A stretch of DNA of 64,000 nucleotides from an uncultured Candidatus Binatia bacterium (GCA_965213675.1 CBDCAF010000018.1:7840-71839); one strand, 5' to 3'. Positions 39,801 to 60,893 are shown, numbered from the stretch's first letter. The notes: generated from the sequence alone by a model not told the origin. A program made the numbers and translations.

Positions 39801-40234
39801 CGGCCTTGCAGAGCGCACGAGGCCCGAACGAGACGATTCACCGCAGGCTGCGCGACATTGCCGCTCAGGATATCGAAGACCTGCTGCCGCAACTCGAAGA
39901 CCGCGCCGAGGGTGTGGCCCGGAGCGCTGGGGACAGGCTTCGCGCACGTGGCGAAAGGGAGGGACAGCAGCTTCGGGAGACCCTGGAACGTCAGCGCCGG
40001 CGAGTGGAAACGGAACTCGGCAAGCACGAGGGCCGCGGAACCCAGCTCACGCTGGAGTTCAGTGAAGCCGAGAAGCGCCAGCTTCAGGCCGACATCGCGT
40101 CGTGGCGCGTGCGTCTGGACCGGTTCGACAAGGACCTTAAGACCGAACCGGCCCGGATCCGCGAGTTCTACGAAGTGCGGGCACAACGAGTCGAGCCCAT
40201 CGGCTTGGTGTACCTGTGGCCGGACACCGGTTGA
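36893..40234 (+). CDS. drmD: SNF2-family helicase, DISARM class 1 DrmD-like
   Basis: Contains DDTGLGKTIEAG, LILDEAHHAAP, LSATPHNG, IATDAAREGLNFQ, DLPWNPGRIEQRNGRIDR. TTG start, with no earlier in-frame start. Confidence 0.8.
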   Translation: MANSRNFSEYDKATTDLPAPLERTPLEDAARLLPERFPDVGELVEVRSRRWLVEAVESESGRVSLACADDDAQGQTLEVYWEFEIDRRILEVEAWNAIGAKGFDAPRHFSAFLHTLRWNCVTATDPNLFQSPFRAGIKIDAYQMEPLRKALRLPRVNLFIADDTGLGKTIEAGLIARELLLRKKVKTMVVAAPASVLEQWKAEMEERFGLLFVILDRAYLTQVRQERGFGVNPWRTHSRFLVSHNLLIDPTYADPMREWLGALLPGSLLILDEAHHAAPSSGGRYGIESKFTRAVRDVGGRFEHRLFLSATPHNGHSNSFSTLLELLDPYRFTRGVPVRGKKDLDEVMVRRIKEDIREVQGGFPRRHVEPVRIDGLPDDAPELVLSRLLDEYRGLREQRLAGARPRAQAMAGLLVVGLQQKLLSSIEAFAISLARHRRTIERLWAQDTEDGQNVPDTRVETVATEPFLKLFAKPPDADDERAEQTDEENAAEEEAQITAINETAELGTPTDEGAKAAWDKEQALLTRMHEVADGARGRPDAKTRRLIDWIYDNLCPDRPRWNERRVLIFTENVIGTKRYLREMLEQAIAGTDFAEERIETIDGQTAGARRKEIQRRFNADPAHDPLRILIATDAAREGLNFQAHCTDLFHFDLPWNPGRIEQRNGRIDRKLQPAPEVRCHYFVLPQRAEDRVLEVLVRKTATIRQQLGSLSKVIDDEVERRLREGIRHGDVERIARDIEAADLDRERRRVAAEELEAARERQDDLKGQIERCRGLLDQSRRWVQFEAQPFRNALSCSLEMLGAEPLKETRTDDGGVVWTLPPLAGKARADASWTATLDTLRAPRKTDQKLAEWRQQAPIRPVVFEDAGVLTDDTVHLHLEQRMAQRLLARFRSQGFVYHDLSRACLVQAADSVPRVILLGRLCLFGRHAERLHEELIPVAARWVEPSRRNGPLRAYAEEAEARTLERLETALQSARGPNETIHRRLRDIAAQDIEDLLPQLEDRAEGVARSAGDRLRARGEREGQQLRETLERQRRRVETELGKHEGRGTQLTLEFSEAEKRQLQADIASWRVRLDRFDKDLKTEPARIREFYEVRAQRVEPIGLVYLWPDTG

Positions 40235-40239
40235 GACCC

Positions 40240-43200
40240 ATGCCTGCGCCCGACCCACACACCCGCGCCCATCTCGAATGGCTCGGCTTCATCCAGCCGA
40301 ACGGCCTCGTGGTCTCCGCTCCGGCCCTGGTCAAGGCTGGGGCCATCCTCAACCGGCACGATGTCGAAGGGCAGGAGTTGCTGGACGCTTGGTTGAACCA
40401 ACGCGATGGATCGCCTGCGCGCCCTCGGGAACAGTGCCTCCAGGACTTCCGCGTATTCGCGAAGACCATCCTCGGCTGGGGTTTCTCGCCCAAGGGATAC
40501 GCGGGTACGGAGGAGACCCCTATCCCGGCGGCACTTAAGGTTCCTCTCCCCGACTACGGAGAGACGCTGCGTCCGGACTTCGCGGTGTGCGAGCGCGACC
40601 CGCAGGCCGGGGAATTGCCGTGGCAGTTGCTCGTGCAGGTGCTGGAAGAGGGTGAAGGCTTCGACAGGCCGACCGCCGGCGGACTGAAAACCTCTCCGCA
40701 GGATCGAATGGAGCGCCTCCTCCGCAGCACCGGAGTTCCTGCTGGTGTGCTCTTCAACGGCGCTGCGCTACGTCTCGTCTCGGCCCCGCGCGGCGAAAGC
40801 TCCGGCTGGATGGACTTTCGTTTGGCCGACATGGCCCAGACCGCGGGGCGGCCTCTGTGCGCGGCGTTGCGCCTTCTTTTGTGTGAGCAACGCCTGTTGA
40901 CAGGGCCGAAGGAACATCGCCTGGCGGCGCTGCTCGCCGACAGCCGCCGGTATCAGAACGAGGTCAGCGAGCGGCTTTCCGAGCAGGTCATGCACGCACT
41001 CTATGACCTCCTTCGAGGGTTCCAGGCGGCCCAGGACGAATCCCGCGGAGAGCTGCTGCGGGAACCGCTCTCCGCGGAAGGCGACCCCAACGACATCTAT
41101 CGCGGCCTTCTCGCCGTCATCCTCCGCCTCGTCTTTCTGCTCTACGCCGAGGAGCGCCGCATGCTTCCGGGCGGCGAGACCTTCATCCAGCACTATTCGG
41201 TTGGCGGCCTCTACCAGCGCCTGCGCGAGGAGGCGGCCTTGCACCCGGATACCATGGATCAGCGCTACGGCGCGTGGGCGCAGCTTCTCGTGCTGTTCCG
41301 CCTTATTCACGACGGGGCGGGTGGGCACAAGACCGGAGGCAGCGTCAGCCTTCCGGAACGCCGCGGCGTTTTGTTCAACCCGGATCGGTATCCGTTCCTC
41401 GAGGGCCGTCACAGCGGCGGCGGCCGGCAGATCACCGAGCGGGTCCAGCCGCCGCTGGTCTCCGACGGCGCCGTCTACCGGGTGCTGGAGAAGCTGGTAG
41501 TCCTCGACGGCGAGCGCATTTCCTACCGCACCCTGGACGTGGAACAGATCGGGTCCGTTTACGAGGTCATCATGGGCTTCCGTCTGGAGACCGCCACCGG
41601 CCGGTCCATGTCCGTCAAGTCCGCCAAGAAGCTTGGGGCGCCGAGCACCGTCGATCTCGACGAGTTGGCGAGACAGCCCGGCGAACGTCGTGGGAAATGG
41701 CTCCAGGACCGCGTGGACCGCACCCTCACCGACACCGTCAGGAAGGGACTGCGGGCAGCCGATACGGTGGATGACCTTCACTTGGCGCTGGACCGGGTGC
41801 TGGACAAGGACGCCACGCCGGACCTCGTCACTCCCGGCTCCCTGGTGCTGCAACCCAGTGATGAGCGCCGCCGCTCGGGCTCCAACTACACGCCGCGGGA
41901 ACTCACCGAACCGATTGTCCGCCACACTCTGGAGCCCCTGCTCAATCGGCTTCGCGGCGAGGATGGACAGGCACCGTCTCCCGCCCGGATTCTCGACCTC
42001 AAGATTTGCGATCCGGCCATGGGTTCCGGCGCCTTTCTGGTGGAAACCTGTCGCCAGCTCGCGGATGCGCTCACCGAGGCATGGCACAAGCACGATGAGA
42101 CGCCGGTAATCCCGCCTGACGAAGACGAGGGGATCCATGCCCGCCGTCTGGTCGCCCAGAAGTGCCTCTACGGCATCGACCGGAATCCCATGGCTGTGGA
42201 CCTGGCCAAGACCTCGCTGTGGCTCAGCACGTTGGCGCGGGACCACCCGCTCACCTTCCTGGACCACGCGTTCCGCCATGGCGACGCCCTCGTCGGATTG
42301 ACCCGGAAACAGGCCGAGGCGTTCCACTGGATCCCGGATAGACCTCCTGAAGAGGGTTTCGAGATCATGAGGGTGCGGGAACACATGACGGAGTTGGCCG
42401 CGCTGCGCCAGCGCATCAGGGACGCGGGCGAGGATGTCTCCGATCAAGAACTGCACGACATCTGGCAAGATGCGCGCGACGAGCTTGGCGCCGTCCGGCT
42501 CTACGGCGATCTGGCGCTGGCGGCGTTCTTCGCTGAAACCAAACGGGGGCCAAGGGAAGGGAAGAGGCGCGAATTCGCCGCAGCCGCCTGGGGTGGTCAG
42601 GCCGAGCGCTACCTGGGATGGATCGGGGACCAGCGCGGCAGCGACCCGCCGCTCGCTCCTTTCCACTGGGAAATCGAGTTCCCCGAGGTGTTCGAGCGCG
42701 AGAATCCGGGGTTCGACGCGTTCGTCGGGAACCCGCCGTTCGCCGGGAAAAATAGCGTCGTCGCTGGTAACGTCGTGGGTTATCCCGACTGGCTCAAGAC
42801 CGTCCACAGAGAGAGCCACGGCAACGCCGACCTTGTAGCGCACTTCTACCGGCGTGCGTTCAACCTCCTGCGTGAAGGGGGCGCGTTCGGTCTGATTGCC
42901 ACCAACACCATCGCCCAAGGCGATACCCGTTCCACCGGACTGCGCTGGATTTGCGAGAACAACGGCTCGATCTTCCGCGCCACCAAACGGGTCAAGTGGC
43001 CCGGCGACGCGGCCGTGGTGGTCAGCGTGCTGCACGTCGCCAAGGGCGAATTTGCAGGAACCAAGGTGCTCGACGGCAGGGATGTGGAGAACATCACCGC
43101 GTTCCTCTTCCACAAGGGCGGCCACGCCGACCCGGCGCGCCTCGAAGCGAACGCCGGCAAGAGCTTCCAGGGAAGCATCGTCCTCGGAATGGGCTTCACC

Positions 43201-45390
43201 TTTGACGACACGGACAAGAAGGGCGTCGCCAACCCGCTGTCGGAGATGCAGCGGCTGATCGAAGCAGACCCGCGCAACGGCGAGCGCATCTTCCCGTACA
43301 TCGGTGGCGAGGAGGTGAACACCAGCCCGACCCACGCCCATCACCGATACGTGATCAACTTTGAGGACTTTCCGTTGCGGAGGGAGGACCTGGGAAAGCA
43401 GTGGGCGGACGCGGGGGAAGACTTGCGCCGCACATGGCTGCGGCGCGGGGTGGTCCCGCTGGACTATCCGGAGCCGGTGGCAGCGGATTGGCCGGATTTG
43501 CTGGCGATTGTGGATGAGCGAGTGAGGCCGGAGCGAAGCAAGCTCACGAAGAATCCCATCGGTCGAAAGCGAGCGGAGTTCTGGTGGCGTTACGGCTCGA
43601 CGGCAAACGAACTCTACGCCGCCAGCGCCAGTCAGCCTCGAGTTTTGGTGATTTCGAGATACGGACAAGTTGCTGCATTCACGTTCTTGCCCGCCGGCGC
43701 TGTCTATAGCGATTCATGCATCATATTCCCGGTCGACACCTATGCCGCCCTGTGCGTCCTCCAGTCCCGCCCCCACGAGATCTGGGTGCGCTTCTTTGGC
43801 TCGTCGATGAAGGACGACCTCCGCTACACGCCATCCGACTGCTTCGAGACTTTCGCTTTTCCTGATGATTGGGCAACGGCCACGGCGCTGGAGGCCGCAG
43901 GCAAGGCGTATTTTGAGCACCGAGTGACGCTGATGCTCTGTAACGGTGAGGGTCTGACCAGAACCTTAAACCGCTTTCATGACCCCTACGATGGCAATCC
44001 GAATATCATCCGTCTCCGAGAACTCCACGCCGCCATGGACCGCGCCGTCCTCGACGCCTACGGCTGGACCGACATCCCCACCGACTGTGATTTCCTCCTC
44101 GACTACGAAATCGACGAGGCTACTTGGGGCGTGAAGAAAAAGCCGTACCGCTATCGCTGGCCCGACAAAATTTGCGACGAAGTCCTTGCTCGCCTTCTCG
44201 CCCTCAATGTTGAGCGTTCCGAAGAGGAAGCCCGTGCACGGCTGGTGCAGAAGCCGGTCCGAAAGAAACGCCATCGCGTCCTGATGGTGGCAGAACAACC
44301 TCCTCTCTGGGATCGTCCAATGACTGACCAGACTCCACAGCGGTTCACGCCGTTGGTGAAGCGCTCTCGTCCCAAGCCTTCGACGATCTATCCGGTTCTC
44401 TGGAAATTTGCGTGTGAGCGCCAGCGGGTCTATCTACGGCGCGTCGCAGGCGACCCAAGCCCGTGGACTACGGACACTGTGCTGTCAGAATACAAGTTCA
44501 CGAATGCCTTCAGAGCCGCTGACAGGGTGAGTCAGTACCTGATTCAGTTGATCTATTCTGATGCTAAGGCCAGCGGCGCCAACGTGTTTCTGAGAGCCCT
44601 TTTATTCAAGGTCTTCAACAAGATCGAGACGTGGGACAGGGTCGTTAACGGACTCGGCATGCCTGTCGCTCACGAGTTCGACTACGCGGCGTGCGACGAT
44701 TTGCTTGTCAATCTTCGTCGGCAGGGGGCGCCGATTTACTCCGCCGCTTACATCATGCCATCGGGAGGACGAGTCGGGATGCCGAAGCACCGGATGCATC
44801 TCGAACTGATTCGCAGAATGCTTGATGAACGCCTTCCGGAGAAGCTGCAGGAGTCGAAGTCGCTGGCTGAAGCCTACGAGATGGTTCTTTTGTATCCCAC
44901 GTTGGGACCCTTTCTCGCTTTCCAGTACGTTATCGACCTAAATTATTCGACCCTGATGAACCACTCGGAACAGAGATTCGTGGTTGCCGGCCCCGGCGCC
45001 TTGGATGGACTGTCCAAGTGCTTCGAGTCGCTTGGGGAGTATGATCCGGCCGACGCCATCCTATGGTTGTCCGACATCCAAGCGGACGAGTTCGCGCGGT
45101 ATGGACTCGAATTCGGGGGTCTATGGGGACGCCCGCTTCAGCCGATCGATGTCCAGAATCTGTTCTGTGAGGTCTCGAAGTACACTCGGGTGACACATCC
45201 AGAGATAAGAGGCCTGACCAAGCGTAAACGCATCAAGCAAAGATTTGCGATGACAGGGCCGCTCGCCAAGCCCTTCTTCCCGCCCAAATGGGGCTTGAAT
45301 CAACGAATTGACGAGTGGCTCCCGCGCCGAACGGGTGCAACTCTCGAACAACGCGAGCTTTTCTTCCCAACCCCAGCCAGGCCTACGTGA
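40240..45390 (+). CDS. drmMI: N6-adenine DNA methyltransferase (Eco57I/type IIG-like), DISARM DrmMI-like, fused to an extra C-terminal domain of about 356 aa (from 44320)
   Basis: SAM motif ICDPAMGSGAFLVE and catalytic FVGNPPFAGKN. ATG lies 5 nt after the drmD stop. The C-terminal part has no methylase motifs: LWKFACERQRVYLRR...PWTTDTVLSEYKFTNAFRAADRVSQYL. Confidence 0.8.
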   Translation: MPAPDPHTRAHLEWLGFIQPNGLVVSAPALVKAGAILNRHDVEGQELLDAWLNQRDGSPARPREQCLQDFRVFAKTILGWGFSPKGYAGTEETPIPAALKVPLPDYGETLRPDFAVCERDPQAGELPWQLLVQVLEEGEGFDRPTAGGLKTSPQDRMERLLRSTGVPAGVLFNGAALRLVSAPRGESSGWMDFRLADMAQTAGRPLCAALRLLLCEQRLLTGPKEHRLAALLADSRRYQNEVSERLSEQVMHALYDLLRGFQAAQDESRGELLREPLSAEGDPNDIYRGLLAVILRLVFLLYAEERRMLPGGETFIQHYSVGGLYQRLREEAALHPDTMDQRYGAWAQLLVLFRLIHDGAGGHKTGGSVSLPERRGVLFNPDRYPFLEGRHSGGGRQITERVQPPLVSDGAVYRVLEKLVVLDGERISYRTLDVEQIGSVYEVIMGFRLETATGRSMSVKSAKKLGAPSTVDLDELARQPGERRGKWLQDRVDRTLTDTVRKGLRAADTVDDLHLALDRVLDKDATPDLVTPGSLVLQPSDERRRSGSNYTPRELTEPIVRHTLEPLLNRLRGEDGQAPSPARILDLKICDPAMGSGAFLVETCRQLADALTEAWHKHDETPVIPPDEDEGIHARRLVAQKCLYGIDRNPMAVDLAKTSLWLSTLARDHPLTFLDHAFRHGDALVGLTRKQAEAFHWIPDRPPEEGFEIMRVREHMTELAALRQRIRDAGEDVSDQELHDIWQDARDELGAVRLYGDLALAAFFAETKRGPREGKRREFAAAAWGGQAERYLGWIGDQRGSDPPLAPFHWEIEFPEVFERENPGFDAFVGNPPFAGKNSVVAGNVVGYPDWLKTVHRESHGNADLVAHFYRRAFNLLREGGAFGLIATNTIAQGDTRSTGLRWICENNGSIFRATKRVKWPGDAAVVVSVLHVAKGEFAGTKVLDGRDVENITAFLFHKGGHADPARLEANAGKSFQGSIVLGMGFTFDDTDKKGVANPLSEMQRLIEADPRNGERIFPYIGGEEVNTSPTHAHHRYVINFEDFPLRREDLGKQWADAGEDLRRTWLRRGVVPLDYPEPVAADWPDLLAIVDERVRPERSKLTKNPIGRKRAEFWWRYGSTANELYAASASQPRVLVISRYGQVAAFTFLPAGAVYSDSCIIFPVDTYAALCVLQSRPHEIWVRFFGSSMKDDLRYTPSDCFETFAFPDDWATATALEAAGKAYFEHRVTLMLCNGEGLTRTLNRFHDPYDGNPNIIRLRELHAAMDRAVLDAYGWTDIPTDCDFLLDYEIDEATWGVKKKPYRYRWPDKICDEVLARLLALNVERSEEEARARLVQKPVRKKRHRVLMVAEQPPLWDRPMTDQTPQRFTPLVKRSRPKPSTIYPVLWKFACERQRVYLRRVAGDPSPWTTDTVLSEYKFTNAFRAADRVSQYLIQLIYSDAKASGANVFLRALLFKVFNKIETWDRVVNGLGMPVAHEFDYAACDDLLVNLRRQGAPIYSAAYIMPSGGRVGMPKHRMHLELIRRMLDERLPEKLQESKSLAEAYEMVLLYPTLGPFLAFQYVIDLNYSTLMNHSEQRFVVAGPGALDGLSKCFESLGEYDPADAILWLSDIQADEFARYGLEFGGLWGRPLQPIDVQNLFCEVSKYTRVTHPEIRGLTKRKRIKQRFAMTGPLAKPFFPPKWGLNQRIDEWLPRRTGATLEQRELFFPTPARPT

Positions 45391-46462
45391 TTTCGCGGTA
45401 AAGAAGTTGCCGTTGATTCATGTCGAGCGTTACGTGTCCTCCCTCGTGTTCCCGGAGAGACCTGAACACGCGATATCCTTTGAGAATGGCGGTTTCCCAC
45501 CGCCATAGGGGAAGTTTGGCGACCTCGAAGCCTTGTATGAACTCCTTTACGGCCTTGAGCAGGTCATAGTCGACCTGGTCGATATTGTCGTAGTAGTTCA
45601 TTTTCTTTGCCCGGCTGAATACAATGGCGGATACGGCCTCTTCGATAATTCTCGCCCGCGCACCGTCCTCGTTCTCGTCCACCAGTGGATCGCTCTTCCG
45701 CTTGCACTTCAGTAGGTGTCTTATGACAGGTGACCATCCGAGGTACACGGCGTAAGCGAAATGGAAAACATCGTGAAACCGGTAGAAGTCAGGCTGTCCG
45801 ATATTGTCCGTCAGGCGATCCCCGAAGTTCAGTCCGTTACACCGGAGTATGGCCGTCACCTTGCTGTCCCGCTGGACTTGGCGAAAGTCGATATCGAGTT
45901 TACGTGGGAGCTGTTCCTCTTCCGGGAAGCCCTCATCGAAGAAAGGTGGGACGACATACCTCTCGGGCCATCGGCTCTGCGTCTTTTCCTGGTTCGTTCG
46001 CGCGGCCTCGTAGAGGTCGACGCCGGCGCCTTCCGCAACGTGAAATAGGGCGTCCCAGGTTGGCCCAAGCCTTCCGGAATCCATTCGGTCACGGTTTTGC
46101 ACTGCACTGAGTAATTCGCCCGCCGCAACCCCGAGGGCCACTCCATCCCCCAAGGGTCCTGGGCTTCGCCCCGATAGGGCCTGCGCTCGCTTGTTCGCAC
46201 GGTTCAGTGCCGACGGATCAAGAATGGCGGAGAGGCGCGCCAAGTACCAAAGACAATCTCCGATTTCTTCGACGAGCCGCTTACGGTATGCGGGATAGGC
46301 GTCGGTTTCACGTTGTTCCTTTTTCAATTCGGCGAGAACACTCCCCGCTTCACCGAAAAGACCTGCCGCAAGGATGAGGGCGTGGTTCGGTTTGTCGACG
46401 AGTTGATCCGTTCGCTTTGCAGACTTGGCGTATTCAATGAGCCAAGACATCGGCTTTCTCAT
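45383..46462 (-). CDS. MazG-like (all-alpha NTP pyrophosphohydrolase) domain protein with a C-terminal extension
   Basis: Contains LAAGLFGEAGSVLAELKKEQRE...RLVEEIGDCLWYLARLS. C-terminal region has FGDRLTDNIGQPDFYRFHDVFHFAYAVYLGWSPV. The stop overlaps the drmMI 3' end by 8 nt. Confidence 0.65.
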   Translation of the reverse strand: MRKPMSWLIEYAKSAKRTDQLVDKPNHALILAAGLFGEAGSVLAELKKEQRETDAYPAYRKRLVEEIGDCLWYLARLSAILDPSALNRANKRAQALSGRSPGPLGDGVALGVAAGELLSAVQNRDRMDSGRLGPTWDALFHVAEGAGVDLYEAARTNQEKTQSRWPERYVVPPFFDEGFPEEEQLPRKLDIDFRQVQRDSKVTAILRCNGLNFGDRLTDNIGQPDFYRFHDVFHFAYAVYLGWSPVIRHLLKCKRKSDPLVDENEDGARARIIEEAVSAIVFSRAKKMNYYDNIDQVDYDLLKAVKEFIQGFEVAKLPLWRWETAILKGYRVFRSLREHEGGHVTLDMNQRQLLYREIT

Positions 46463-47228
46463 GTGCTTCCTTCAAGGAACGGAGATCGTCGAGCAGTTTC
46501 TGTAGCCGTCTTTCCGACCCCTCAAGGGTGGCATAAGACGAGTGGACCACCAGGGTGCCCATGTCCTGCCCGGTCTCTTTGGCGACACAATCCTGGAGGC
46601 GGGCCAAACCAAGCAGGTTGCCTGGTACCTTGTATCGGTAGTCATGGCTCCGGTAGAATGCTGTCAGGTGGACCGCACCAACGAAGAGCTTGAACGAAAG
46701 GTGGGAGAGACAAGGATCGCCCCGTCGGCGTTTACCGTCTTTCACCGTGTTGTAGAGGGGCATGTCGTATTCCCCTTCGGCGACATTAATGTCGTAACGG
46801 GATTTCATGGTTCCCTTGGTCGAAAGCTCCTTCTTCATATTGTCTATCATCTCCTTCAAGGGGTTCATGTCCGTGCCATCGGCTGTCTTTCGTCGAACCA
46901 GCCGATAGGCGTAGGTGTCCCAAAGGATCTTTGGATGCCGCTTGATCGCCGGAAAGGTCTTATCGGGGTAGTCGTCGTAGACGCCCTTCAGTCCCCGCCT
47001 GCGATATTCTGACAAGGGAAAGATCGTTTCGGCCACCGAGTGAATCGGTAGTTGGTTTTCGCCCATAAAGAAGTCATCGAGTTTTTGCTCTGCGGCCTTG
47101 GGATAGCCCCTCTTTCCCGGTTCTCCGATCTCCAGCACAAGGTTCAGCATGGGACCGTTGGACAACAGGAACTCGGCGGCGTCAACCCAGGCATCCATCC
47201 AGGCAGCGGTCTGGATCAATTTTGCCAT
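46434..47228 (-). CDS. Thymidylate synthase-fold (ThyA / pyrimidine hydroxymethylase-like) protein
   Basis: GDPCLSHLSFKLFVGAVHLTAFYRSHDYRYKVPGNLLGLARLQDCVAKETG aligns with E. coli ThyA [56 protein letters not shown] RBS. Confidence 0.65.
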   Translation of the reverse strand: MAKLIQTAAWMDAWVDAAEFLLSNGPMLNLVLEIGEPGKRGYPKAAEQKLDDFFMGENQLPIHSVAETIFPLSEYRRRGLKGVYDDYPDKTFPAIKRHPKILWDTYAYRLVRRKTADGTDMNPLKEMIDNMKKELSTKGTMKSRYDINVAEGEYDMPLYNTVKDGKRRRGDPCLSHLSFKLFVGAVHLTAFYRSHDYRYKVPGNLLGLARLQDCVAKETGQDMGTLVVHSSYATLEGSERRLQKLLDDLRSLKEAHEKADVLAH

Positions 47229-47857
47229 CACGTCACCTCCTCCGTGAGGGCCAGTAGGTCGCGTAGATGACGGGCGAGGAAGGCGTCGTCGAGCCATGCA
47301 TGGCCGTTGTCACCCCATTCGGCACCCCAGCTATTCCTGACCAGGAAGCACCGCGATGTATCGGCGGTCCCCAAACCGACCGCTACGACTGCGTGAAGAC
47401 CTCGGATCGGGCCGTCGTGCGAGATTAACCAAAGAGGTGTAGGCGACAAAAAGTCGTCTGGTATGGAAATGCCGAGAACAGGCGTTTGCCCAGCGTTTAG
47501 CAGGGTTTCGACCTCATCTGCGGTAGCATCCTTCTGAACGCTCTTGCGTGGGTACAGTCGCACGCCTGCCGGTGGCATCCAGCCGAGAGGCAAACCGTCG
47601 GGATAGTAGGGGCAGTCTGCTTCCGCGGGCTGCCCAGGGTCTTGCAGGGCACGAGATGTCTCCAGGAATGCTGCGCCATCCGTCGGATTGTGGACCGACG
47701 CAAAGTAGTGGAGATACTCCGGCGAGAGCGCCATCTTGGAGCCGCGCACGCGTTCGTGTGCGCTCGTGCAGGCAAATGATAGACATGTGGGCCGGGCGCC
47801 CTGGTCCCGAATCGGGCCGAGGCTTTGCCGGTGGTCGACGAGAACGGTGATGTTCAT
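47228..47857 (-). CDS. Papain-family (C1) cysteine peptidase without a signal peptide
   Basis: Contains IRDQGARPTCLSFA (Gln/Cys), GLHAVVAVGLG (His), VRNSWGAEWGDNGHAWL (Asn). Its ATG overlaps the upstream stop (ATGA). Confidence 0.75.
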   Translation of the reverse strand: MNITVLVDHRQSLGPIRDQGARPTCLSFACTSAHERVRGSKMALSPEYLHYFASVHNPTDGAAFLETSRALQDPGQPAEADCPYYPDGLPLGWMPPAGVRLYPRKSVQKDATADEVETLLNAGQTPVLGISIPDDFLSPTPLWLISHDGPIRGLHAVVAVGLGTADTSRCFLVRNSWGAEWGDNGHAWLDDAFLARHLRDLLALTEEVT

Positions 47858-48837
47858 GCTGCATTTGCCAGTGCGTCGAGTTTGGCTTTTCTCGGGAAGC
47901 CGCCGGATTCCTTTCCATGAGCATCGATTTTGATCGCGATATGGTCGAGTGTCGCGCCGCTCCATGGGCGGGCGTGTTCAAAGGCGAGTCGATGTGTGCC
48001 AGGAGTATTGAAACGGACATACACGACACGGGCTGAAGGCCGTCCATAGACTCTGTCCGAGTCTGCTGTGTGCTCTGCGATGACCTCGGAGCTGGCTCCG
48101 GTGTCGATGAGCCTCCAGATGTAGCCGGCGGAAACGTTGTCCTCCAGATGGACTGCGAAGAGATCGTCGGGTCCGGCTTCGAGAAACGTGTCGGTGTCAC
48201 CACAGGTCAAAGCCCAGACGTCGGCCCAGGAGTTCGTGATCAGTTCTGCGGGTGCCAACGCCCGCTTCAGTTCCTTGACCGGCGTCGCTTCGAGTTGTTT
48301 GGCTTCCGCGCGCGTAAGGACCTTGGACGTTACCAAACCCCAGCATGCGGCTTGGTAGCTGATGCCCAAGCGAAGGGAAAGTTGGTAGATGTTGCGCGGT
48401 TGATGCAGCTCTTGCCTTTTCCAGCCATGGCGTGTGGCGGATTCTACCATGAGCTGTTTTGATGCCAGCAGCTCCGAGGCAAAGGTGTCAGCGGCCACCT
48501 CCTCAATCGCACGTGACCCTGAAGCGTGACGTCCCGCGAACCCAACGGTTTTATCCAGGCTTGACTCATGCCCCAGCACCCAGTGTCCGAGCTCGTGGGC
48601 CAGTGTAAACCGCTGAACGGCCAGTCCCATGCGACTCGTAACGATGATGCCTCGGGCACCCTTGCCAGCGGGAACAACGGCGCCCCAAAGATGATCCAGC
48701 GGCCGAAAGACGAGGGGGATGTCCCGCGTGGTGATCGCGCTGACAATGTCGAAACTGGTGCGGTCACTCTTGGCAGTTGAGGCGAGAATCTTGGCTGCTT
48801 CTCTGACGGCTCGCAAAGTCTCGTTACGTCTGTTCAT
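47854..48837 (-). CDS. ImmA/IrrE-type Zn metallopeptidase domain fused to a chagasin-like (I42) cysteine-peptidase inhibitor domain
   Basis: HEXXH motif LAHELGHWVLGH. The C-terminus FAVHLEDNVSAGYIWRL...PGTHRLAFEHARPWSGA matches chagasin NPTTGFAW...AGTHAVNLTYMRPWTGP. Confidence 0.75.
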   Translation of the reverse strand: MNRRNETLRAVREAAKILASTAKSDRTSFDIVSAITTRDIPLVFRPLDHLWGAVVPAGKGARGIIVTSRMGLAVQRFTLAHELGHWVLGHESSLDKTVGFAGRHASGSRAIEEVAADTFASELLASKQLMVESATRHGWKRQELHQPRNIYQLSLRLGISYQAACWGLVTSKVLTRAEAKQLEATPVKELKRALAPAELITNSWADVWALTCGDTDTFLEAGPDDLFAVHLEDNVSAGYIWRLIDTGASSEVIAEHTADSDRVYGRPSARVVYVRFNTPGTHRLAFEHARPWSGATLDHIAIKIDAHGKESGGFPRKAKLDALANAA

Positions 48838-49186
48838 CCGGTTTCCTCGACCGCAGGAATTGGGCGAAACGAAGAACCTCCTCCCGGTCGGTCACCGACA
48901 GTTCAGCGGTCGCCCGTGCTACCAGTCGTACCGACTCCGGCTCCGGGCTCTCCAGATCGGGTCCGGTGAGGCTCTCCATGTTGGTCTGATAGAGCGTGGC
49001 AAGGCGCTGAAGTTCCAATGCATCGACACGTCGCGCCCGATTCTCCATGAGTGAAATGGCGGATCTGGGAAGGCCGAGATGTGCGGCAACCTCTTCCTGG
49101 GTGAACCCGCAGTATTCCCGCGCCTCCTTTAGCCGCGTGCTCAGGGTGCCACGCTTGGCTGGCTGGCCGTGATTATCGTCGTTCAT
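48824..49186 (-). CDS. XRE-family helix-turn-helix transcriptional regulator
   Basis: Contains LKEAREYCGFTQEEVAAHLGLPRSAISLMENRARRV. 14-nt overlap with the ImmA-like gene. Confidence 0.85.
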   Translation of the reverse strand: MNDDNHGQPAKRGTLSTRLKEAREYCGFTQEEVAAHLGLPRSAISLMENRARRVDALELQRLATLYQTNMESLTGPDLESPEPESVRLVARATAELSVTDREEVLRFAQFLRSRKPDEQT

Positions 49187-49220
49187 TTACCACCTCCAAT
49201 CGGATGGGTTGGCGTCAAGC

Positions 49221-49616
49221 TCAGGAGATCTTTCTCATCATTTCGGGTACAAGATGATCGATCATGTCGTCGATGCTCTGGTAACCTCCAGGACGAATCA
49301 GCCGAACGTCAATGGGGCGACCTAGGTATCGCTGAAAAATCGGAGAGCTGCGGGCCACAGCCTTTGAGTCCAACTCAGGCATGGAATCCCACAGGTCGGA
49401 GTTGCTCCTGTCACTGACCATTCCGTTACGACTCGCTTCCACTTGTAAATCCCAGTCTCCCATCTCCTGACTCGCCCATTCCCTGAGTTCTTTTCTCAAG
49501 AGGGCCTCCTTGTTCGGCCCACGGCCCCTCACGGTCCTCAGCGTGGAGGTATCCCAGAACGAAAGGGGAATCTGGGATGAAGATTTAGGGGCTTGGGTAG
49601 GGATTTTGTGTTCCAT
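49221..49616 (-). CDS. Hypothetical protein; the C-terminal half resembles a phosphopantetheine carrier domain
   Basis: ELDSKAVARSSPIFQRYLGRPIDVRLI..GYQSIDDMIDHLV resembles the PCP/ACP pattern GxDS[LK]xAV...F...L...SI..L..HL. Located 34 nt downstream of the PPTase gene. Confidence 0.45.
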   Translation of the reverse strand: MEHKIPTQAPKSSSQIPLSFWDTSTLRTVRGRGPNKEALLRKELREWASQEMGDWDLQVEASRNGMVSDRSNSDLWDSMPELDSKAVARSSPIFQRYLGRPIDVRLIRPGGYQSIDDMIDHLVPEMMRKIS

Positions 49617-49650
49617 AACGGAACAAGATTAGCACCGTAATGTTCGAAAG

Positions 49651-50322
49651 TCAAACATTGCGTTGGGGCAATTCCGGCTGTTGTGACAACAAGGCAACTG
49701 AGCCCACCCAGGGACGGACGGCGGTGGTGCAGCAAACCTCTACAGCGATTCGGTCGAAATGAGCAACGCCGTTCATCATCCCTTGTGGCGCAACTTCCTT
49801 CCACGAGAGTCGTACGTTGTCGTAGCCGAATCGGACACCAAGAACAGGGTTCAAAGCCTTGAAAACGGCTTCCTTCACCGACAGTAGGATCACCGAGCCT
49901 GCAACACCCCAGTCCAGAGGCAACTCGTCGGACGCGATCAGTCCTTTGATTGACAGGAGTTCCCGACCGCGGTCCAGAGTCTCGATGTCGATGCCGACGG
50001 ACCTCACGTGACTGATCCGAGATAGCCCAGCCACAACTTTGGTGCCTTTATGGCTCACGCTCCCCGTGTAACCCGGTGGCCAGTCTCGGGCGCCGGAGGC
50101 GAGGTGCCCTGGCTCATTGGCAGACAGCCCAGCACTCTCCAGCAGATTGGTCAGACAGGTCGCCGTGGCCTTCCGTCTCGCGCGTTCCACGACGGGGACA
50201 CGTTCAGCGGACAGGACGTCCTGAGGGCCTGGTAGCCAATGCGCAAAAGAACCGCCCCTGATGCTCACTTCAGGTGCCAAGCGTTTGAGTTCGTCAACGA
50301 GGGGGTCACGTTGCAGATACAT
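49651..50322 (-). CDS. 4'-phosphopantetheinyl transferase (EntD/Sfp-type)
   Basis: Trimmed to MYLQRDPLVDEL. Contains WPPGYTGSVSHKG, VGIDIE, LSVKEAVFKAL. Confidence 0.75.
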   Translation of the reverse strand: MYLQRDPLVDELKRLAPEVSIRGGSFAHWLPGPQDVLSAERVPVVERARRKATATCLTNLLESAGLSANEPGHLASGARDWPPGYTGSVSHKGTKVVAGLSRISHVRSVGIDIETLDRGRELLSIKGLIASDELPLDWGVAGSVILLSVKEAVFKALNPVLGVRFGYDNVRLSWKEVAPQGMMNGVAHFDRIAVEVCCTTAVRPWVGSVALLSQQPELPQRNV

Positions 50323-50504
50323 GGTTTGATTTTTGCCGTTTACGGGTCTGCGTGGGGTCGATATCGGTTGGGTGCCGTGACGACGGCTGGCTTCTCGTTG
50401 TCTCCCGTGCCCCAGTTCTTCCGCTTGGGGCATATCGTCTCATCGGGTAACCTATTCTATAGGCCGCCGGTTCCGTGGGCGAGCCCCCATTGGACGCGAT
50501 CCTG

Positions 50505-50903
50505 ATGGAAGCCAAACTCAAGCACCTTGAATTTATCCAGGGCGTAGTGAATCGCCTAGCGTCTGACTCCTTCCGAATGAAGGGCTGGGCGGTGGCCTTG
50601 GTTGCTGCGTTCTTTGTCCTGTTGGCAAGGGAAGGACGGATCGAATTTGCCCCGATAGCCGTGGTTCCCGTGCTTGTCTTCTGGGGACTCGACGGCTACT
50701 TCCTGTGGCAGGAACGTCTCTTCCGTGCCCTGTACGATCACGTTCGGCGTGTGAGTGAAGTCGACATTGACTTCTCCATGGATGTCGGCCCGTTTCGAAT
50801 GGGCTGGCGACGAACTTGGTTGGGCGCAACATTCTCGAAAACGCTGATCTTCTTCTACGGCGCGTTGACCATCGCTGTCGGCTTGGTGACGTGCATCTAC
50901 TGA
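50505..50903 (+). CDS. Small integral membrane protein (about 3 TM helices)
   Basis: Contains GWAVALVAAFFVLLA, IAVVPVLVFWGLDGYFLW, LIFFYGALTIAVGLVTCIY. An alternative GTG start is at 50475. Confidence 0.6.
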   Translation: MEAKLKHLEFIQGVVNRLASDSFRMKGWAVALVAAFFVLLAREGRIEFAPIAVVPVLVFWGLDGYFLWQERLFRALYDHVRRVSEVDIDFSMDVGPFRMGWRRTWLGATFSKTLIFFYGALTIAVGLVTCIY

Positions 50904-50922
50904 CCGCGAGGAGACACATCCA

Positions 50923-51420
50923 ATGACACGCAGGGTGTTCTACAGCTTTCACTACAACGCCGACAACTGGCGAGCTGCCATGGTGCGCAATATCGGCAGT
51001 ATCGAAGGGAGCAGCCCCGCATCGGACAACGACTGGGAGGCCGTGAAGAGGGGCGGGGAAGCAGCGATCAGGAAATGGATCGCCAACCAAATGCAATACC
51101 GCTCCTGTACAGTCGTACTGGTCGGGTCGAATACTGCGAACCGCAAGTGGATCAACCACGAAATCGTCAAGTCGTGGGATGACGGTATGGGTGTGATAGG
51201 GATCCACATTCACGGGCTGAAGGATGCCGACGGCAATACGTCAGCCCGAGGAGCCAATCCGTTTGACTTCATCACGCTTGGAGATTCTGCGAAGCGGCTA
51301 TCATCCATAGTGAGGTGTTGTGTTCCCGGCGGCAGCAATAGTCAGGAGAAATATGCCTGGATCTCGAAGCACCTCGCGAATGCAGTAGAAGAAGCCATAA
51401 AAATACGAAACAATAATTGA
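50923..51420 (+). CDS. ThsB-like TIR domain protein (DUF1863 / MTH538 TIR-like)
   Basis: Contains RVFYSFHYNADNWRAAMVRN, CTVVLVGSNTANRKWINHEI, GVIGIHIHGL. Confidence 0.7.
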   Translation: MTRRVFYSFHYNADNWRAAMVRNIGSIEGSSPASDNDWEAVKRGGEAAIRKWIANQMQYRSCTVVLVGSNTANRKWINHEIVKSWDDGMGVIGIHIHGLKDADGNTSARGANPFDFITLGDSAKRLSSIVRCCVPGGSNSQEKYAWISKHLANAVEEAIKIRNNN

Positions 51421-52673
51421 AGACCGCTATCGTCTGTATGAAAGCATCCATCGAGCAACCCAACCCTGGAGCCGATCCCGGAACGATCACGCGCGTAGCC
51501 CTGCGTAACTACAAAAGCATTGCCGCCTGCGATGTCGAGTTGACGCCGCTCACTGTCCTCGTGGGTCCCAACGGTTCCGGCAAGAGTAATTTCCTTGACG
51601 CCCTGTGCTTTGCGGCGCAGGCATTGCGTTTTTCTCTGCACCATGCTGTACACGAGCGCGGTGGGATCAACGAGGTGCGCCGGCTTTCCCACGGCCATCC
51701 CAACCGCTTTGGCATCCGTCTGGATTTCCGTTTGTCCGACGCAACAGGGTGGTACGCGTTCAAGATCGGAGTGCGACGGAACGGCGGCTGTGTCGTACAC
51801 CGCGAGGAATGTGCTATCCAACACGCCGACCCTGGAGAAAGGCAGTATTTCCGAATAGGCGACGGTCGTCTACTGTCTACCTCCATCCCACACCCGCCGC
51901 CGACAGGTGGAAGTGACCGACTTTACCTACAGTCGGCCTCAGGATTTCGAGCGTTCCGGCCGATTTACGATATGTTGGCGGGAATGGGGTTCTACAATCT
52001 CAAGCCGGACCGGATTCGAGACTTCCAGTCGCCGGACCGCGGGGATCTCCTCAAACGGAATGGAAGCAACATCGCCAGCGTTCTCGCCAACCTTGAGTCA
52101 CGTTCCCCAGAGGTTGCAACACGGGTCGGCCAATACCTGTCCAAGGTCGTCCCGGGAACGGTCGGCGTGGCGTCGAAGACGGTCGGACCCAAGCTGACCC
52201 TGGAGTTTTGTCAGCAGGTGCGTGGCGATCCGCACCCTCGGCGGTTTCTTGCCAACAACGCTTCAGAAGGGACGTTGCGGGTCGTCGGGGTACTCGTAGC
52301 GCTTTGTCAGAGTATCGGAGTGGAATCGGGGAACGTGAAACTGGTCGGCATCGAAGAACCGGAAGGCACCCTTCACCCTGCGGCTGCCGGAGTGCTGTCC
52401 GACATACTGCGCGAGGCGAGCGAGCGTGTGCAGGTTGTCGTCACCAGCCAGAGTGCGGACTTGTTGGATCGGAAAACGATTCCATTGGAATCCATCCTGG
52501 CGGTCGTCTCCGAGGACAATGAGACGAAAATTGCCCGGCTTGATGCGGCAGGCCACACGGCACTCCGGGAAGATATGTTCACGGCGGGGGAGATGCTTCG
52601 GATGAATCAGCTTACGCCGAATCCAAAGCAGGTGGCGCCCGTTCACCTGGACCTCTTCCGTAAGGAGGAGTAG
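51417..52673 (+). CDS. ABC/SMC-type AAA ATPase (AAA_21/COG4637-like)
   Basis: Walker A LVGPNGSGKSNFLDAL, signature-like ASEGTLRVVGVL, Walker B LVGIEEPEGTLHP. The TTG start overlaps the TIR stop by 4 nt. An alternative ATG is at 51438. Confidence 0.75.
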   Translation: MKTAIVCMKASIEQPNPGADPGTITRVALRNYKSIAACDVELTPLTVLVGPNGSGKSNFLDALCFAAQALRFSLHHAVHERGGINEVRRLSHGHPNRFGIRLDFRLSDATGWYAFKIGVRRNGGCVVHREECAIQHADPGERQYFRIGDGRLLSTSIPHPPPTGGSDRLYLQSASGFRAFRPIYDMLAGMGFYNLKPDRIRDFQSPDRGDLLKRNGSNIASVLANLESRSPEVATRVGQYLSKVVPGTVGVASKTVGPKLTLEFCQQVRGDPHPRRFLANNASEGTLRVVGVLVALCQSIGVESGNVKLVGIEEPEGTLHPAAAGVLSDILREASERVQVVVTSQSADLLDRKTIPLESILAVVSEDNETKIARLDAAGHTALREDMFTAGEMLRMNQLTPNPKQVAPVHLDLFRKEE

Positions 52674-52698
52674 GGGAAGGTGTCAAGGAGGCGTGTTC

Positions 52699-53049
52699 AT
52701 GCCGCGCAACACATCGGTTTCTCTCGGGTATCACTTCATCGGTTTCATCGACGAGCGTGTGCAGTCCGGTCGTTACAACTCGGCAAGCGATGTGGTGCGC
52801 GCCGGGCTGCGGCTGTTGGAAGAGCACGAAGCCAAGGTTGAGGCTCTGAGGGAAGCCCTCATCGAAGGCGAGCAATCCGGTCCGGCGACACCGTTTGACT
52901 TCGACGCGTTCATTACCCGCAAGAAGACTACTCAGGACGGTCAAGAGGGCCGTCCTGAGACCCAGTCCGAGTTTGCCAGCCAAGACCGCTACCCGGCCGG
53001 CCATGAAACGGGACGCCTGAACCGAGACGACATTGACGAAGGCGGTTAG
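52699..53049 (+). CDS. parD: ParD-family (RHH) antitoxin-like protein with an atypical C-terminal tail of about 35 aa
   Basis: Contains MPRNTSVSLGYHFIGFIDERVQSGRYNSASDVVRAGLRLLEEHEAKVEALREALIEGEQSGPATPFDFDAF. Confidence 0.8.
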   Translation: MPRNTSVSLGYHFIGFIDERVQSGRYNSASDVVRAGLRLLEEHEAKVEALREALIEGEQSGPATPFDFDAFITRKKTTQDGQEGRPETQSEFASQDRYPAGHETGRLNRDDIDEGG

Positions 53050-53058: not shown

Positions 53059-53298
53059 ATGAGCACCATGATTGACCCGAAGGCATGCGCCTTCCAGGAA
53101 GATCGCGCTGCGGCTGAAGTCGAAGCTGCCCTGGCGGCGGCCAAGGAAGACGCCAAGAGAGTCAGGGCAGAGTTTGTCGATAGTTTGCCGCCAGACTCTC
53201 TCGCATACGATGCCGAATGGACTACCGGGTACGGCAGCGAGGGTCGCTTGATCTTCACGATAACCTCCGTATGCGTGACTACCCCAGAGAAGCGGTGA
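53059..53298 (+). CDS. Hypothetical small protein (weak call)
   Basis: ATG lies 9 nt after the parD-like stop. No recognisable motif. Confidence 0.25.
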   Translation: MSTMIDPKACAFQEDRAAAEVEAALAAAKEDAKRVRAEFVDSLPPDSLAYDAEWTTGYGSEGRLIFTITSVCVTTPEKR

Positions 53299-53461
53299 AC
53301 CAAGTGACTGCCGACCTGCGAAGGCGACTCGTCGGCACAAGAGTCGATGCATGTGGTGTATGGGTGGTCACCATCATCCTGCGGCCCAGGCCGTCGGGTT
53401 GATCCCATGCCTAGAGATCCACGCCAATTGACAACCGCGGACCATCCCGTACGTTCAAGGC

Positions 53462-60779: not shown

Positions 60780-60893
60780 GTCTTCCGGTATCGCATTGAG
60801 GCCGATGAACACGGTGTATTCGACTTCCAGCAGGAATGACCGAATGATCGGCGCGACGCCTGCCTGGCGGGGAAAGGCGAGCGGGTCCGGACG

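Follow-up and report, generated by a model that had tools for sequence, protein, structure and literature searches.

The E. coli system DS-4 ('NTTI'), which has been validated experimentally, combines a thymidylate synthase (TS), an adenylate-kinase-like deoxynucleoside monophosphate kinase, an HMUDK_hel protein, a ThsB-type TIR protein and Nmad2; its mechanism is not described in the publication (PMC13092281). Legends and text of the same publication also present a predicted, not validated system of MazG, MazG-C, NMAD and uracil-DNA glycosylase (UDG; DefensePredictor Fig. 6F/S12B), and attribute MazG-C and related domains to Burroughs et al. 2015 NAR (Nucleic Acids Research). In phages, 5-HMUDK phosphorylates 5-hydroxymethyldeoxyuridine (5-hmdU) in DNA, and its gene co-occurs with that of a dUMP hydroxymethylase (PMC5889632, PMC8989533). 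Defences embedded in other defence systems are common according to the preprint of Payne et al., in which 96.7% of embedded genes point the same way as their host system and the text makes no mention of MazG, thymidylate synthase, peptidase or phosphopantetheinyl. Here we compare with these systems a cassette of eight genes that lies inside a defence island system associated with restriction-modification (DISARM) locus, on a 64,000-nucleotide stretch of DNA from an uncultured Candidatus Binatia bacterium (GCA_965213675.1, CBDCAF010000018.1:7840-71839). This whole stretch is called the window, and positions are counted from its first letter.

The cassette joins an XRE regulator and an ImmA-chagasin fusion protein to a papain-like C1 peptidase, a TS-fold enzyme (TS-like), a MazG-MazG_C protein, a candidate carrier protein and a predicted 4'-phosphopantetheinyl transferase (PPTase), with a convergent HMUDK_hel gene as the eighth member. 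The arrangement of these genes is far beyond chance, and the same set is found in dozens of unrelated genomes. Judging from sequence relationships, we consider it somewhat better than an even bet that the cassette, which is conserved and horizontally mobile, is an inducible anti-phage or anti-mobile-element system, which would act on pyrimidine nucleotides and DNA.

The cassette comprises eight genes

The open reading frames (ORFs) of the cassette and the elements attached to them were mapped as follows.

40216-44319, plus strand: DrmMI (DISARM methyltransferase), 3' end joined to HMUDK_hel (PADLOC)
44320-45390, plus strand: HMUDK_hel, the eighth gene, convergent to the other seven (Pfam, frame check, orthologues)
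45383-46462, minus strand: MazG/MazG_C (ORF map)
46434-47228, minus strand: TS-like (ORF map)
47228-47857, minus strand: C1 peptidase (ORF map)
47854-48837, minus strand: ImmA and chagasin (ORF map)
48824-49186, minus strand: XRE (ORF map)
49221-49616, minus strand: 131-aa ORF, acyl carrier protein (ACP)-like candidate carrier (ORF map)
49609-49657, minus strand: promoter-like element and putative operator (intergenic alignment)
49651-50322, minus strand: predicted PPTase (ORF map)

A preliminary description of this stretch had put forward seven tightly packed, co-directional minus-strand ORFs as a candidate conflict system. All seven were reproduced in the ORF map with the spacings given there, namely gaps of 34 and 34 nt followed by overlaps of 14, 4, 1 and 29 nt. 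The starts chosen for the PPTase, C1 and TS-like genes match the N-termini in orthologue alignments. The MazG gene more likely starts at 46450 than at 46462, because the consensus of 58 homologues begins with MSW, and the last overlap would therefore be 17 nt rather than 29. The domain assignments of that description were all upheld, by Pfam and, for the guess that the 131-aa protein is carrier-like, by a family profile. Its count of seven genes was too low, since the convergent HMUDK_hel gene, here fused to drmMI, is a constant eighth partner.

Profile hidden Markov model searches, which had been proposed as a check, were run with Pfam, PADLOC and NCBIfam; they confirmed the domains and assigned no known system beyond capH/capP-like regulators. 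Among the seven minus-strand proteins, five had no match in PADLOC and two matched regulator models only (capH and capP); PADLOC v2 holds no models for the cassette enzymes. The five unmatched and two regulator-like genes are cargo or accessory genes and not part of the DISARM core.

The gene set recurs in unrelated genomes

A search of species-representative genomes with an ImmA-chagasin fusion profile yielded 79 loci, and their gene content was established by tblastn with all window proteins. Type 1 loci (numbered L011-L042, n=32) have 50-82% ImmA identity, and a second group (L043-L071, n=29), mostly of type 2, about 35%. The type 1 order is PPTase-carrier-XRE-ImmA/chagasin-C1-TS-like-MazG/MazG_C with a convergent HMUDK_hel gene. 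All eight genes were detected in half of the type 1 loci (16/32), the others being cut by contig ends or interrupted by insertion sequence (IS) elements. By the labels of the metagenome-assembled genomes (MAGs), which include Binatia, Thermodesulfobacteriota, Vicinamibacterales/Acidobacteriota, Gammaproteobacteria/Pseudomonadales and Planctomycetota, type 1 spans at least six phylum-level lineages; a Longimicrobiales copy is truncated. The nearest relatives of the window cassette are found in Binatia MAGs.

Some 21 type 2 loci carry XRE-ImmA/chagasin-C1-TS-like together with a convergent MazG-MazG_C/UDG-like pair, in Rhodobacteraceae, Brevundimonas, Pseudomonas, Variovorax, Methylobacillus, Rheinheimera, Frateuria and on a Sulfitobacter plasmid. 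Neither the PPTase nor HMUDK_hel was detected in type 2 loci, where a UDG-superfamily protein, annotated by NCBI as uracil-DNA glycosylase, stands in the place of HMUDK_hel. The PPTase is specific to type 1 and lies outside the universal core. That core, across the variants, comprises the ACP-like carrier, XRE, ImmA-chagasin, the prodomain-less C1 peptidase, the TS-fold enzyme and MazG-MazG_C, together with either HMUDK_hel or a UDG-like protein.

When MazG-MazG_C was used as the anchor in metagenomes, an HMUDK_hel (21) or UDG-like (53) gene adjoined it in 74 of 80 loci, and ImmA, C1 and TS-like genes were present in 16 of 20 loci flanked by 5 kb or more on either side (80%). The layout of these loci varies: in L115 the order HMUDK_hel-carrier-XRE-ImmA-C1-TS-like-MazG is entirely co-directional, and three loci (L111, L121 and L139) have a divergent HMUDK_hel/MazG arrangement. 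That co-occurrence survives such changes in gene order speaks for one functional unit. The preliminary description had proposed a search for ImmA-chagasin, C1, TS-like and MazG genes elsewhere, to see whether the block is conserved; the search was run, and the same gene set was found again in other genomes, as a conserved co-occurring unit.

Two of the metagenomic loci have additional neighbours. In L115 (Ga0210390_10000010, 2339-3499) the cassette is preceded by a 386-aa dCTP-deaminase-like protein, which suggests an added dCTP-to-dUTP feeding step, and by a TrwC-type relaxase/helicase, which suggests carriage on a conjugative element. In L144 (Ga0153933_1000128, 5965-9874) a DUF1883-TIR protein, a ThsB-TIR protein and Nmad2 accompany MazG-MazG_C and a UDG-like protein, with no XRE, ImmA-chagasin, C1 or TS-like gene; a large patatin-like protein adjoins the MazG-MazG_C/UDG-like set. 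From the layout of L144, the nucleotide module appears to be combinable with a different 'front end'.

Among 1.84 billion representatives, the ImmA-chagasin family accounts for 295 clusters at 50% identity (E<=1e-30), and most of the top matches among those listed span both domains. Four relatives (P0346, P0357, P0376 and P0391) are 450-485 aa long and match from residue 118-151 onwards; this would fit an N-terminal fusion, possibly to the XRE domain. Homologues of MazG-MazG_C number more than 3600.

Integrases, IS elements and a relaxase occur near cassette loci. Type 2 was found on 17 plasmid records, 11 of them conjugative, which include rhizobial and sphingomonad plasmids and one Haloarcula plasmid. 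A scan of IMG/VR viral contigs with the ImmA-chagasin profile returned generic ImmA domains only and no fusion. On the conjugative plasmid pSfreGR64b of Sinorhizobium fredii (L250), IS66 and Mu-like transposase genes surround the type 2 cassette. Its flanks (5371-8171 and 13553-16808) hold a 'caspase family protein' with a hypothetical gene on one side and a 724-aa metallophosphoesterase with a separate 350-aa 'thymidylate synthase' on the other.

A CapH/CapP-like regulator pair and a putative operator

The XRE protein matches Pfam HTH_31 (1.7e-10; also HTH_3) and PADLOC capH (1.1e-11, profile positions 7-100 of 103), with weak matches to PADLOC models of restriction-modification (R-M) control proteins. 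The ImmA/IrrE part of the adjacent protein matches Pfam Peptidase_M78 (1e-9) and, over its N-terminal 164 aa only, PADLOC capP (7e-16, model positions 8-146 of 242). The HEXXH residues H81, E82 and H85 are invariant in 26 ImmA-chagasin sequences. ImmA-chagasin lacks the C-terminal GAF domain of CapP and instead has a chagasin I42 domain there.

The DNA between the PPTase and carrier genes is conserved in nearly all type 1 loci (alignment of about 30 loci). In the window, a -35 element, TTGACT, lies at 49654-49649 on the minus strand, where it overlaps the PPTase stop codon and adjoins a TTCGAAC half-site. The -10 element TAATCT follows after a 17-nt spacer at 49631-49626, and the palindrome TGTTCCGTTATGGAACA comes directly after it at 49625-49609. 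The half-sites of the operator co-vary by clade, with GTTCC/GGAAC in the window and L011-L013 and GTTCG/CGAAC elsewhere. The palindrome pattern has 0.57 chance occurrences expected in the window, and a single copy of the -35/half-site motif GTTTGACWWTCGRAC is found in each of 11 type 1 loci, always at this position, with one further site upstream of XRE in L049. The case for a promoter and operator rests on the multiple alignment and on the uniqueness of the motif: a strict palindrome regular expression matches only about 11 of 36 loci, and a generic promoter scan missed the conserved promoter, whose -10 element in the window fits 3 of 6 positions. The window holds one other near-match to the palindrome, TGTTCCGTGATCGCACA, with two mismatches at 56765-56781 within drmA, and no further copy; this near-match is probably due to chance.

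Since the promoter and operator lie between the PPTase and carrier genes, the PPTase gene is upstream of and outside the putative operator-controlled promoter, and the genes from carrier to MazG are placed behind a putative repressor-controlled promoter. The proposal of a single operon needs correction, since a conserved -35/-10 promoter and palindromic operator come between the PPTase and the rest. The carrier ATG is inside the palindrome, and therefore either the mRNA is leaderless or the true start is further downstream.

A papain-like peptidase coupled to a chagasin domain

The chagasin domain is well above the Pfam threshold (Inhibitor_I42, 3.1e-10, 40.6 bits against a cut-off of 27.2), and its RPW loop motif (R290-P291-W292) is invariant in 26 sequences. 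The C1 peptidase (PF00112, 6.8e-10) has Q19, C25, H155, N175, S176 and W177 invariant in 30 orthologues, nearly in papain numbering. It begins at the mature N-terminus, with no prodomain and no signal peptide (cytoplasmic), and its start overlaps the ImmA stop in ATGA. The simplest reading of these sequences is that the chagasin domain stands in for the absent prodomain and would hold the C1 peptidase bound and silenced on the sensor protease.

Predicted nucleotide enzymes

The TS-like protein matches Pfam Thymidylat_synt just below the cut-off (5e-5, 23.0 bits against 24.3), the NCBIfam archaeal TS model far below its equivalog cut-off (4.8e-10), and TS entries of the PDB at E ~0.3. Across 30 sequences its residues C173, R193, N204 and Y106 do not vary, and in the alignment they fall on the TS motifs PC(H) and RS.D...N, so that equivalents of the Cys146 nucleophile, Arg166, the uracil-specifying Asn177 and Tyr94 of TS are kept. 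Curated TS models fail on this family because of its divergence outside the active site.

MazG-MazG_C, a predicted MazG-like NTP pyrophosphohydrolase with MazG_C at its C-terminus, matches Pfam MazG_C at 1.8e-78 and MazG at 5e-5, and the MazG profile matches DCTPP1/RS21-C6 (E 4e-5). In an AlphaFold2 (AF2) model with a predicted local distance difference test (pLDDT) score of 85, the N-terminal domain resembles dimeric dUTPases in the PDB. It also resembles phage nucleoside triphosphate pyrophosphatases (NTP-PPases) and dUTPases, such as that of LuckyBarnes and the putative dUTPase of the thymidine-hypermodifying phage PhiW-14. MazG_C is modelled as a mixed alpha/beta domain.

HMUDK_hel is fused to DrmMI in the window

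HMUDK_hel, the helical domain of 5-hmdU DNA kinases, was detected with high significance (PF18723, 8.2e-93) at aa 1391-1665 of a 1724-aa ORF (40216-45390, plus strand). DrmMI and HMUDK_hel form a single reading frame in this ORF with no intervening stop codon; the PADLOC match to DrmMI (1261 bits) covers aa 15-1354. HMUDK_hel retains its own in-frame ATG at 44320, and its 3' end reaches 8 nt into the convergent MazG gene.

A gammaproteobacterial MAG has the same seven genes in the same order beside leucine-catabolism genes, with no DISARM nearby and with a standalone 347-aa HMUDK_hel gene convergent to MazG_C. From this standalone copy in a DISARM-free setting we conclude that HMUDK_hel belongs to the cassette. 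Standalone convergent orthologues of about 347 aa are present in L007/L010 and about 16 other loci. The DrmMI fusion is peculiar to the window; its interpretation as a general feature was rejected, since L021 has overlapping ORFs in different frames and HMUDK_hel is standalone elsewhere. In five loci (L011, L012, L021, L022 and L035) drmMI, or its 3' fragment alone, directly precedes HMUDK_hel, and in L011, L012 and L022 it is reduced to a 3' fragment still attached to HMUDK_hel.

The HMUDK_hel family has no relative in the PDB by sequence. In the window protein only the helical domain was matched, and no Walker A motif, and thus no P-loop, was seen on reading the sequence. Homologues are encoded in 503 phage records, including Salmonella, Klebsiella and Pseudomonas phages, and the one that best matches the window protein is encoded by Brevibacterium phage LuckyBarnes.

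A candidate carrier protein and a predicted PPTase

The 131-aa protein has no Pfam match, and tblastn found it in type 1 only. In 70 of 88 loci, all types included, the position immediately before XRE is taken by an ORF that contains an invariant GGY motif. The protein has a conserved core of about 90 aa, and its N-terminal 35 aa or so are variable, unconserved and disordered (low pLDDT). Phosphopantetheine would be attached at Ser84, within the motif L-D-S-K, and this Ser is at least 90% conserved in the joint alignment. The window motif reads 'LDSKAVAR..PIF..YLG', and the type 2 motif '(I/M)DSLVVVE(I/L)L..VE..LGF' is a classical carrier-protein signature.

Against the PDB, the carrier family profile matches 2lki_A at E 0.002, and most of the other matches listed (E 0.04-1.3) are ACPs, with the family Ser aligned to their phosphopantetheine-bearing DSL Ser; this match was reached only after divergent type 2 and type 3 homologues had joined the profile. 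An hhalign comparison with four ACPs was negative. The AF2 model (pLDDT 62) has an ACP-compatible helical pattern, and Foldseek with this mediocre model gave only weak matches to ACPs and peptidyl carrier proteins (E 3-9, TM <=0.47). The predicted fold is compatible with an ACP, and with the 131-aa protein being an ACP-like carrier.

The PPTase matches Pfam ACPS and 4PPT_N (~5e-4) and NCBIfam PptT (2.5e-6), Npt and EntD, in all cases below the cut-offs. In 20 orthologues K150, E151 and K155 are invariant and D112 and E114 near-invariant (GIDIE and KEA..K motifs). It is predicted to be an Sfp/EntD-type 4'-phosphopantetheinyl transferase. Supplementary file 11 of DefensePredictor (PMC13092281), apparently a table of scores for gene neighbours, gives sizeable summed values for the neighbour names '4'-phosphopantetheinyl transferase superfamily protein' and 'thymidylate synthase', a hint that defence genes have PPTase neighbours more frequently than has been recognised.

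The DISARM context

The DISARM genes were assigned from PADLOC matches, all of them strong.

36893-40234: DrmD (PADLOC)
40216 onwards, plus strand: DrmMI (PADLOC)
53821-57621: DrmA (PADLOC)
57531-59447: DrmB (PADLOC)

DrmD and DrmMI are on one side of the block and DrmA and DrmB on the other. G+C content is 55-60% over 44-54 kb and 63-69% in the flanks. The earlier view of the block as AT-richer cargo within DISARM is borne out by this drop in G+C and by the DISARM genes on both sides, a drmMI-drmA position that recurs in other genomes. Drm genes or fragments lie within 10 kb of the cassette in 16 of the 32 type 1 loci, compared with 0 of 29 loci in the second group, and in the loci with both flanks visible (L021, L027, L028, L030 and L035) the cassette or its remnant sits between drmMI and drmA, as in the window. 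This association could reflect a co-inherited island or a functional tie.

Of the class 1 DISARM core (drmD, drmMI, drmA, drmB and drmC), no DrmC was identified in the window. A gene for NADH-quinone oxidoreductase chain 3 (nuoA, 59656-60150, plus strand) starts right after drmB, so that the locus ends without an identifiable drmC. An 866-aa minus-strand ORF (60063-62663) has no Pfam or PADLOC match and probably overlaps real plus-strand nuo genes.

Divergent from the PPTase gene is a PDC-M50 candidate (50475-51420, plus strand), which consists of a small membrane protein and a ThsB-like TIR protein (50923-51420). Homologues of PDC-M50A occur near the cassette in L024, L027, L028, L035 and L040. 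By analogy to the TIR protein of DS-4, the TIR/transmembrane pair was considered as a part of the cassette and rejected, since its position relative to the cassette varies. An AAA_21/AAA_15 ATPase (51417-52673, plus strand; PADLOC HEC-01A, 7e-150) overlaps the TIR stop by 4 nt, and because of this overlap the ATPase and PDC-M50 may form a three-gene unit. Next is a ParD-type antitoxin (52693-53049, plus strand; Pfam 3.6e-35); downstream of it no ParE toxin ORF could be recognised, and Pfam gave no match for the short ORFs at 53059-53842.

Proposed function and rival explanations

We propose that the CapH-like XRE protein would repress the promoter before the carrier gene via the palindromic operator, and that, on an infection or DNA-damage signal, the CapP-like ImmA domain would cleave XRE and so induce the operon. 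The chagasin domain would occupy the active site of the translationally coupled, prodomain-less C1 peptidase, so that protease activity would be latched to the sensor and be released or redirected on activation only. The MazG/dimeric-dUTPase-like domain would convert dUTP to dUMP, possibly from a dCTP start through the deaminase seen in L115. The TS-fold enzyme, with its dUMP-type active site, may then attach a one-carbon group to C5 and so form 5-hydroxymethyl-dUMP or another C5 adduct of this kind, which MazG_C would re-phosphorylate and return to the pool. The modified base would enter replicating DNA, where the action of HMUDK_hel (type 1) or the UDG-like protein (type 2) would leave phage DNA blocked or damaged. 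The ACP-like carrier, phosphopantetheinylated in type 1 by the cassette PPTase, would give a thiol or a tethered group.

In a bolder version of this scheme, which we hold to be quite unlikely, the thiol of the holo-carrier would capture the C5-exocyclic-methylene intermediate of the TS reaction or 5-phosphomethyl-dU, and a two-protease latch of ImmA-chagasin and the papain-like peptidase, in place of the GAF domain by which CapP senses single-stranded DNA, would gate the whole reaction. HMUDK_hel and MazG_C would assist in making the 5-phosphomethyl-dU in DNA, and a protein-nucleotide or protein-DNA thioether adduct would poison phage replication. The ACP-like protein would then take part as a reactant in nucleic-acid chemistry rather than carry lipids or polyketides. 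Should this hold, it would be the first case in immunity of a nucleotide or DNA modification that depends on a carrier protein, and a new coupling of an inhibitor domain to an immune switch.

Several points weigh against an inducible defence system of this kind. The defence role is drawn from context and from the homology of single parts, and libraries other than PADLOC, including NCBIfam, gave generic or sub-threshold domain-level matches only for the cassette proteins. In CapP, single-stranded DNA is bound in an inter-domain groove partly formed by the GAF domain (bioRxiv 10.1101/2022.04.27.489752); because a chagasin domain replaces GAF here, single-stranded DNA cannot be assumed as the trigger. 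The same preprint discusses that XRE/ImmA pairs also control prophages and integrative and conjugative elements (ICEs). The block runs antiparallel to the DISARM genes, with HMUDK_hel alone co-oriented, unlike the 96.7% of embedded genes counted by Payne et al. The product of the TS-like enzyme is not separable by sequence into methylation, hydroxymethylation or another transfer. MazG_C has no relative of known activity by sequence or fold, and the label 'predicted nucleotide kinase' comes from the literature only (PMC13092281). As HMUDK_hel is missing the P-loop, DNA kinase activity cannot be assumed, and the cassette has no enzyme that would load an ACP.

The main rival is self-modification linked to DISARM. 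The cassette would then be a hypermodification module that places a second, thymidine-derived epigenetic mark on host DNA for self/non-self discrimination, with the XRE protein acting like an R-M controller: the TS-like enzyme would make hm-dUMP, HMUDK_hel would act post-replicatively beside DrmMI, and DISARM or another nuclease would discriminate. The fusion of HMUDK_hel to DrmMI in the window, and its position overlapping or directly after drmMI in other loci, fits this, as does the location of half of the type 1 loci inside DISARM, at one and the same drmMI-drmA site. HMUDK_hel together with TS-like enzymes is the hallmark of phage thymidine hypermodification (PMC5889632, PMC8989533), and the weak match of XRE to R-M control-protein models points the same way. 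However, complete cassettes exist without DISARM, which is absent from every type 2 locus and from the inspected plasmid copy (pSfreGR64b), and neither an aGPT-Pplase/AADT nor a P-loop 5-HMUDK domain is present. A repressor, protease switch and latch would suit a system that is off by default better than a housekeeping mark, and the glycosylase-like substitute for HMUDK_hel in type 2 removes bases and does not decorate them. We consider self-modification unlikely. It is very doubtful that the cassette is a mosaic of independent, co-travelling modules, namely XRE/ImmA-chagasin/C1 (toxin-antitoxin-like), MazG_C with HMUDK_hel or UDG, and PPTase/carrier. Such independence would explain why L144 has MazG-MazG_C and a UDG-like gene without the protease module, why ImmA, C1 and TS-like genes are missing in 4 of 20 well-flanked loci, why neither a TS-like nor a MazG_C gene was detected beside carrier-like-XRE-ImmA-C1 in L071, and why the PPTase is confined to type 1 and divided from the rest by a promoter. 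Yet the core genes and HMUDK_hel or the UDG-like gene stay together through at least four gene orders or orientations and across phyla, the protease module is present in 80% of well-flanked MazG_C loci, and start/stop overlaps of 14, 4, 1 and 17-29 nt tie regulators, protease and enzymes to one another.

Less probable again is that the cassette serves its mobile element, through addiction or stabilisation, entry exclusion or anti-defence of plasmids, ICEs or islands. ImmA/XRE pairs classically govern ICE and prophage induction, the cassette is frequent on conjugative plasmids with a relaxase, integrases and transposases adjoining, and a protease with its cognate inhibitor resembles a toxin-antitoxin pair. 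But type 1 resides in chromosomal DISARM beside defence candidates with no recognisable ICE or prophage backbone, HMUDK_hel is shared with the phage-protective DS-4, and type 2/L144 relatives add Nmad2 and TIR to these links. A small gene cluster that makes a modified nucleoside or nucleotide as a natural product, built from carrier, PPTase, TS-like enzyme and NTP pyrophosphatase, is highly improbable, even though a dedicated PPTase with an ACP-like protein is typical of secondary metabolism and TS-fold (CMP) hydroxymethylases are known from nucleoside-antibiotic clusters. No gene for adenylation, ketosynthase, acyltransferase, condensation, thioesterase or export belongs to the conserved set, its constant partners are a DNA-directed HMUDK_hel or UDG-like protein and a CapH/CapP-like switch, and its context is one of defence islands and mobile elements.

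If the chemistry is the one proposed above, the cassette could be a source of enzymes for site-selective DNA modification. The repeated link to drmMI suggests cooperation of methylation-based and thymidine-directed systems.

Relation to described systems

Comparison with DS-4 reveals a full-length homologous HMUDK_hel protein (hhalign 99.7%, E 4.7e-26, 273 columns, 26% identity). Both systems have a TS-fold enzyme with a catalytic Cys and a partner that handles nucleotide phosphates, in a compact operon in variable regions. The two TS proteins are only distantly alike, with the PC motif aligned at an hhalign probability of 2.4%. DS-4 has a P-loop kinase whereas the cassette has MazG-MazG_C, and DS-4 includes TIR and Nmad2 and is without XRE, ImmA-chagasin, C1, carrier and PPTase; no P-loop kinase, ThsB-type TIR or Nmad2 domain was found in the eight cassette proteins. 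The predicted MazG/UDG system has the same MazG-MazG_C and UDG pair that forms the convergent pair of type 2, and L144 corresponds to its Nmad2/TIR version. Its legends and text are without ImmA-chagasin, C1, TS-like and carrier, and the window has HMUDK_hel in place of UDG.

The regulators are like CapH-CapP (and IrrE-DdrO and ImmA-ImmR) in that an XRE repressor adjoins an M78 HEXXH metallopeptidase and an operator lies in the promoter. The cassette differs in having a chagasin-family domain for GAF, and in the location of the pair inside the regulated operon, behind the carrier gene. Phage thymidine hypermodification (M6, ViI, PhiW-14 and SP10) shares with the cassette HMUDK_hel homologues, a TS-fold enzyme and the dUTPase/NTP-PPase structural class. 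In contrast, the cassette has no P-loop kinase domain, aGPT-Pplase, pyridoxal phosphate or radical S-adenosylmethionine enzyme (its proteins had no Pfam match to the P-loop 5-HMUDK domain or to aGPT-Pplase/AADT), and it is cellular and repressor-controlled, with ImmA-chagasin not found in viral contigs. With other chagasin (I42)/papain (C1) pairs it has in common an I42 domain above the Pfam threshold, the invariant RPW motif and a complete C1 catalytic set, whereas in the cassette a metallopeptidase contains the inhibitor as one of its domains, with translational coupling to a peptidase that is cytoplasmic and has no prodomain.

A full-text literature search for chagasin together with anti-phage found no paper. 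One for MazG_C and HMUDK_hel found only DefensePredictor and unrelated papers, with the neighbourhood undescribed in them; earlier domain-defining papers may describe it. That no named system has this composition, as initially stated, holds in so far as PADLOC matched the regulators alone, and is to be qualified by the parts shared with DS-4 and the predicted MazG/UDG system. The cassette is not a member of DS-4, of the CapH/CapP-regulated cyclic-oligonucleotide-based anti-phage signalling systems (CBASS) or of the phage hypermodification pathways. On sequence comparison it is also not without precedent, with DS-4 and the predicted MazG/UDG system as its apparent relatives. Defence of the nucleotide-modification type has been validated only recently, with DS-4, and the cassette would be a widespread relative with extra parts. 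It has three components that are unreported in the defence systems found by our searches, a dedicated carrier (with its own PPTase in type 1), a protease/inhibitor pair in a CapP-like sensor and a very divergent TS-fold enzyme. The natural module swaps between the cassette and its relatives, of HMUDK_hel for a UDG-like protein, of the TS-like enzyme for Nmad2 and of the protease switch for TIR, can guide work on their mechanism.

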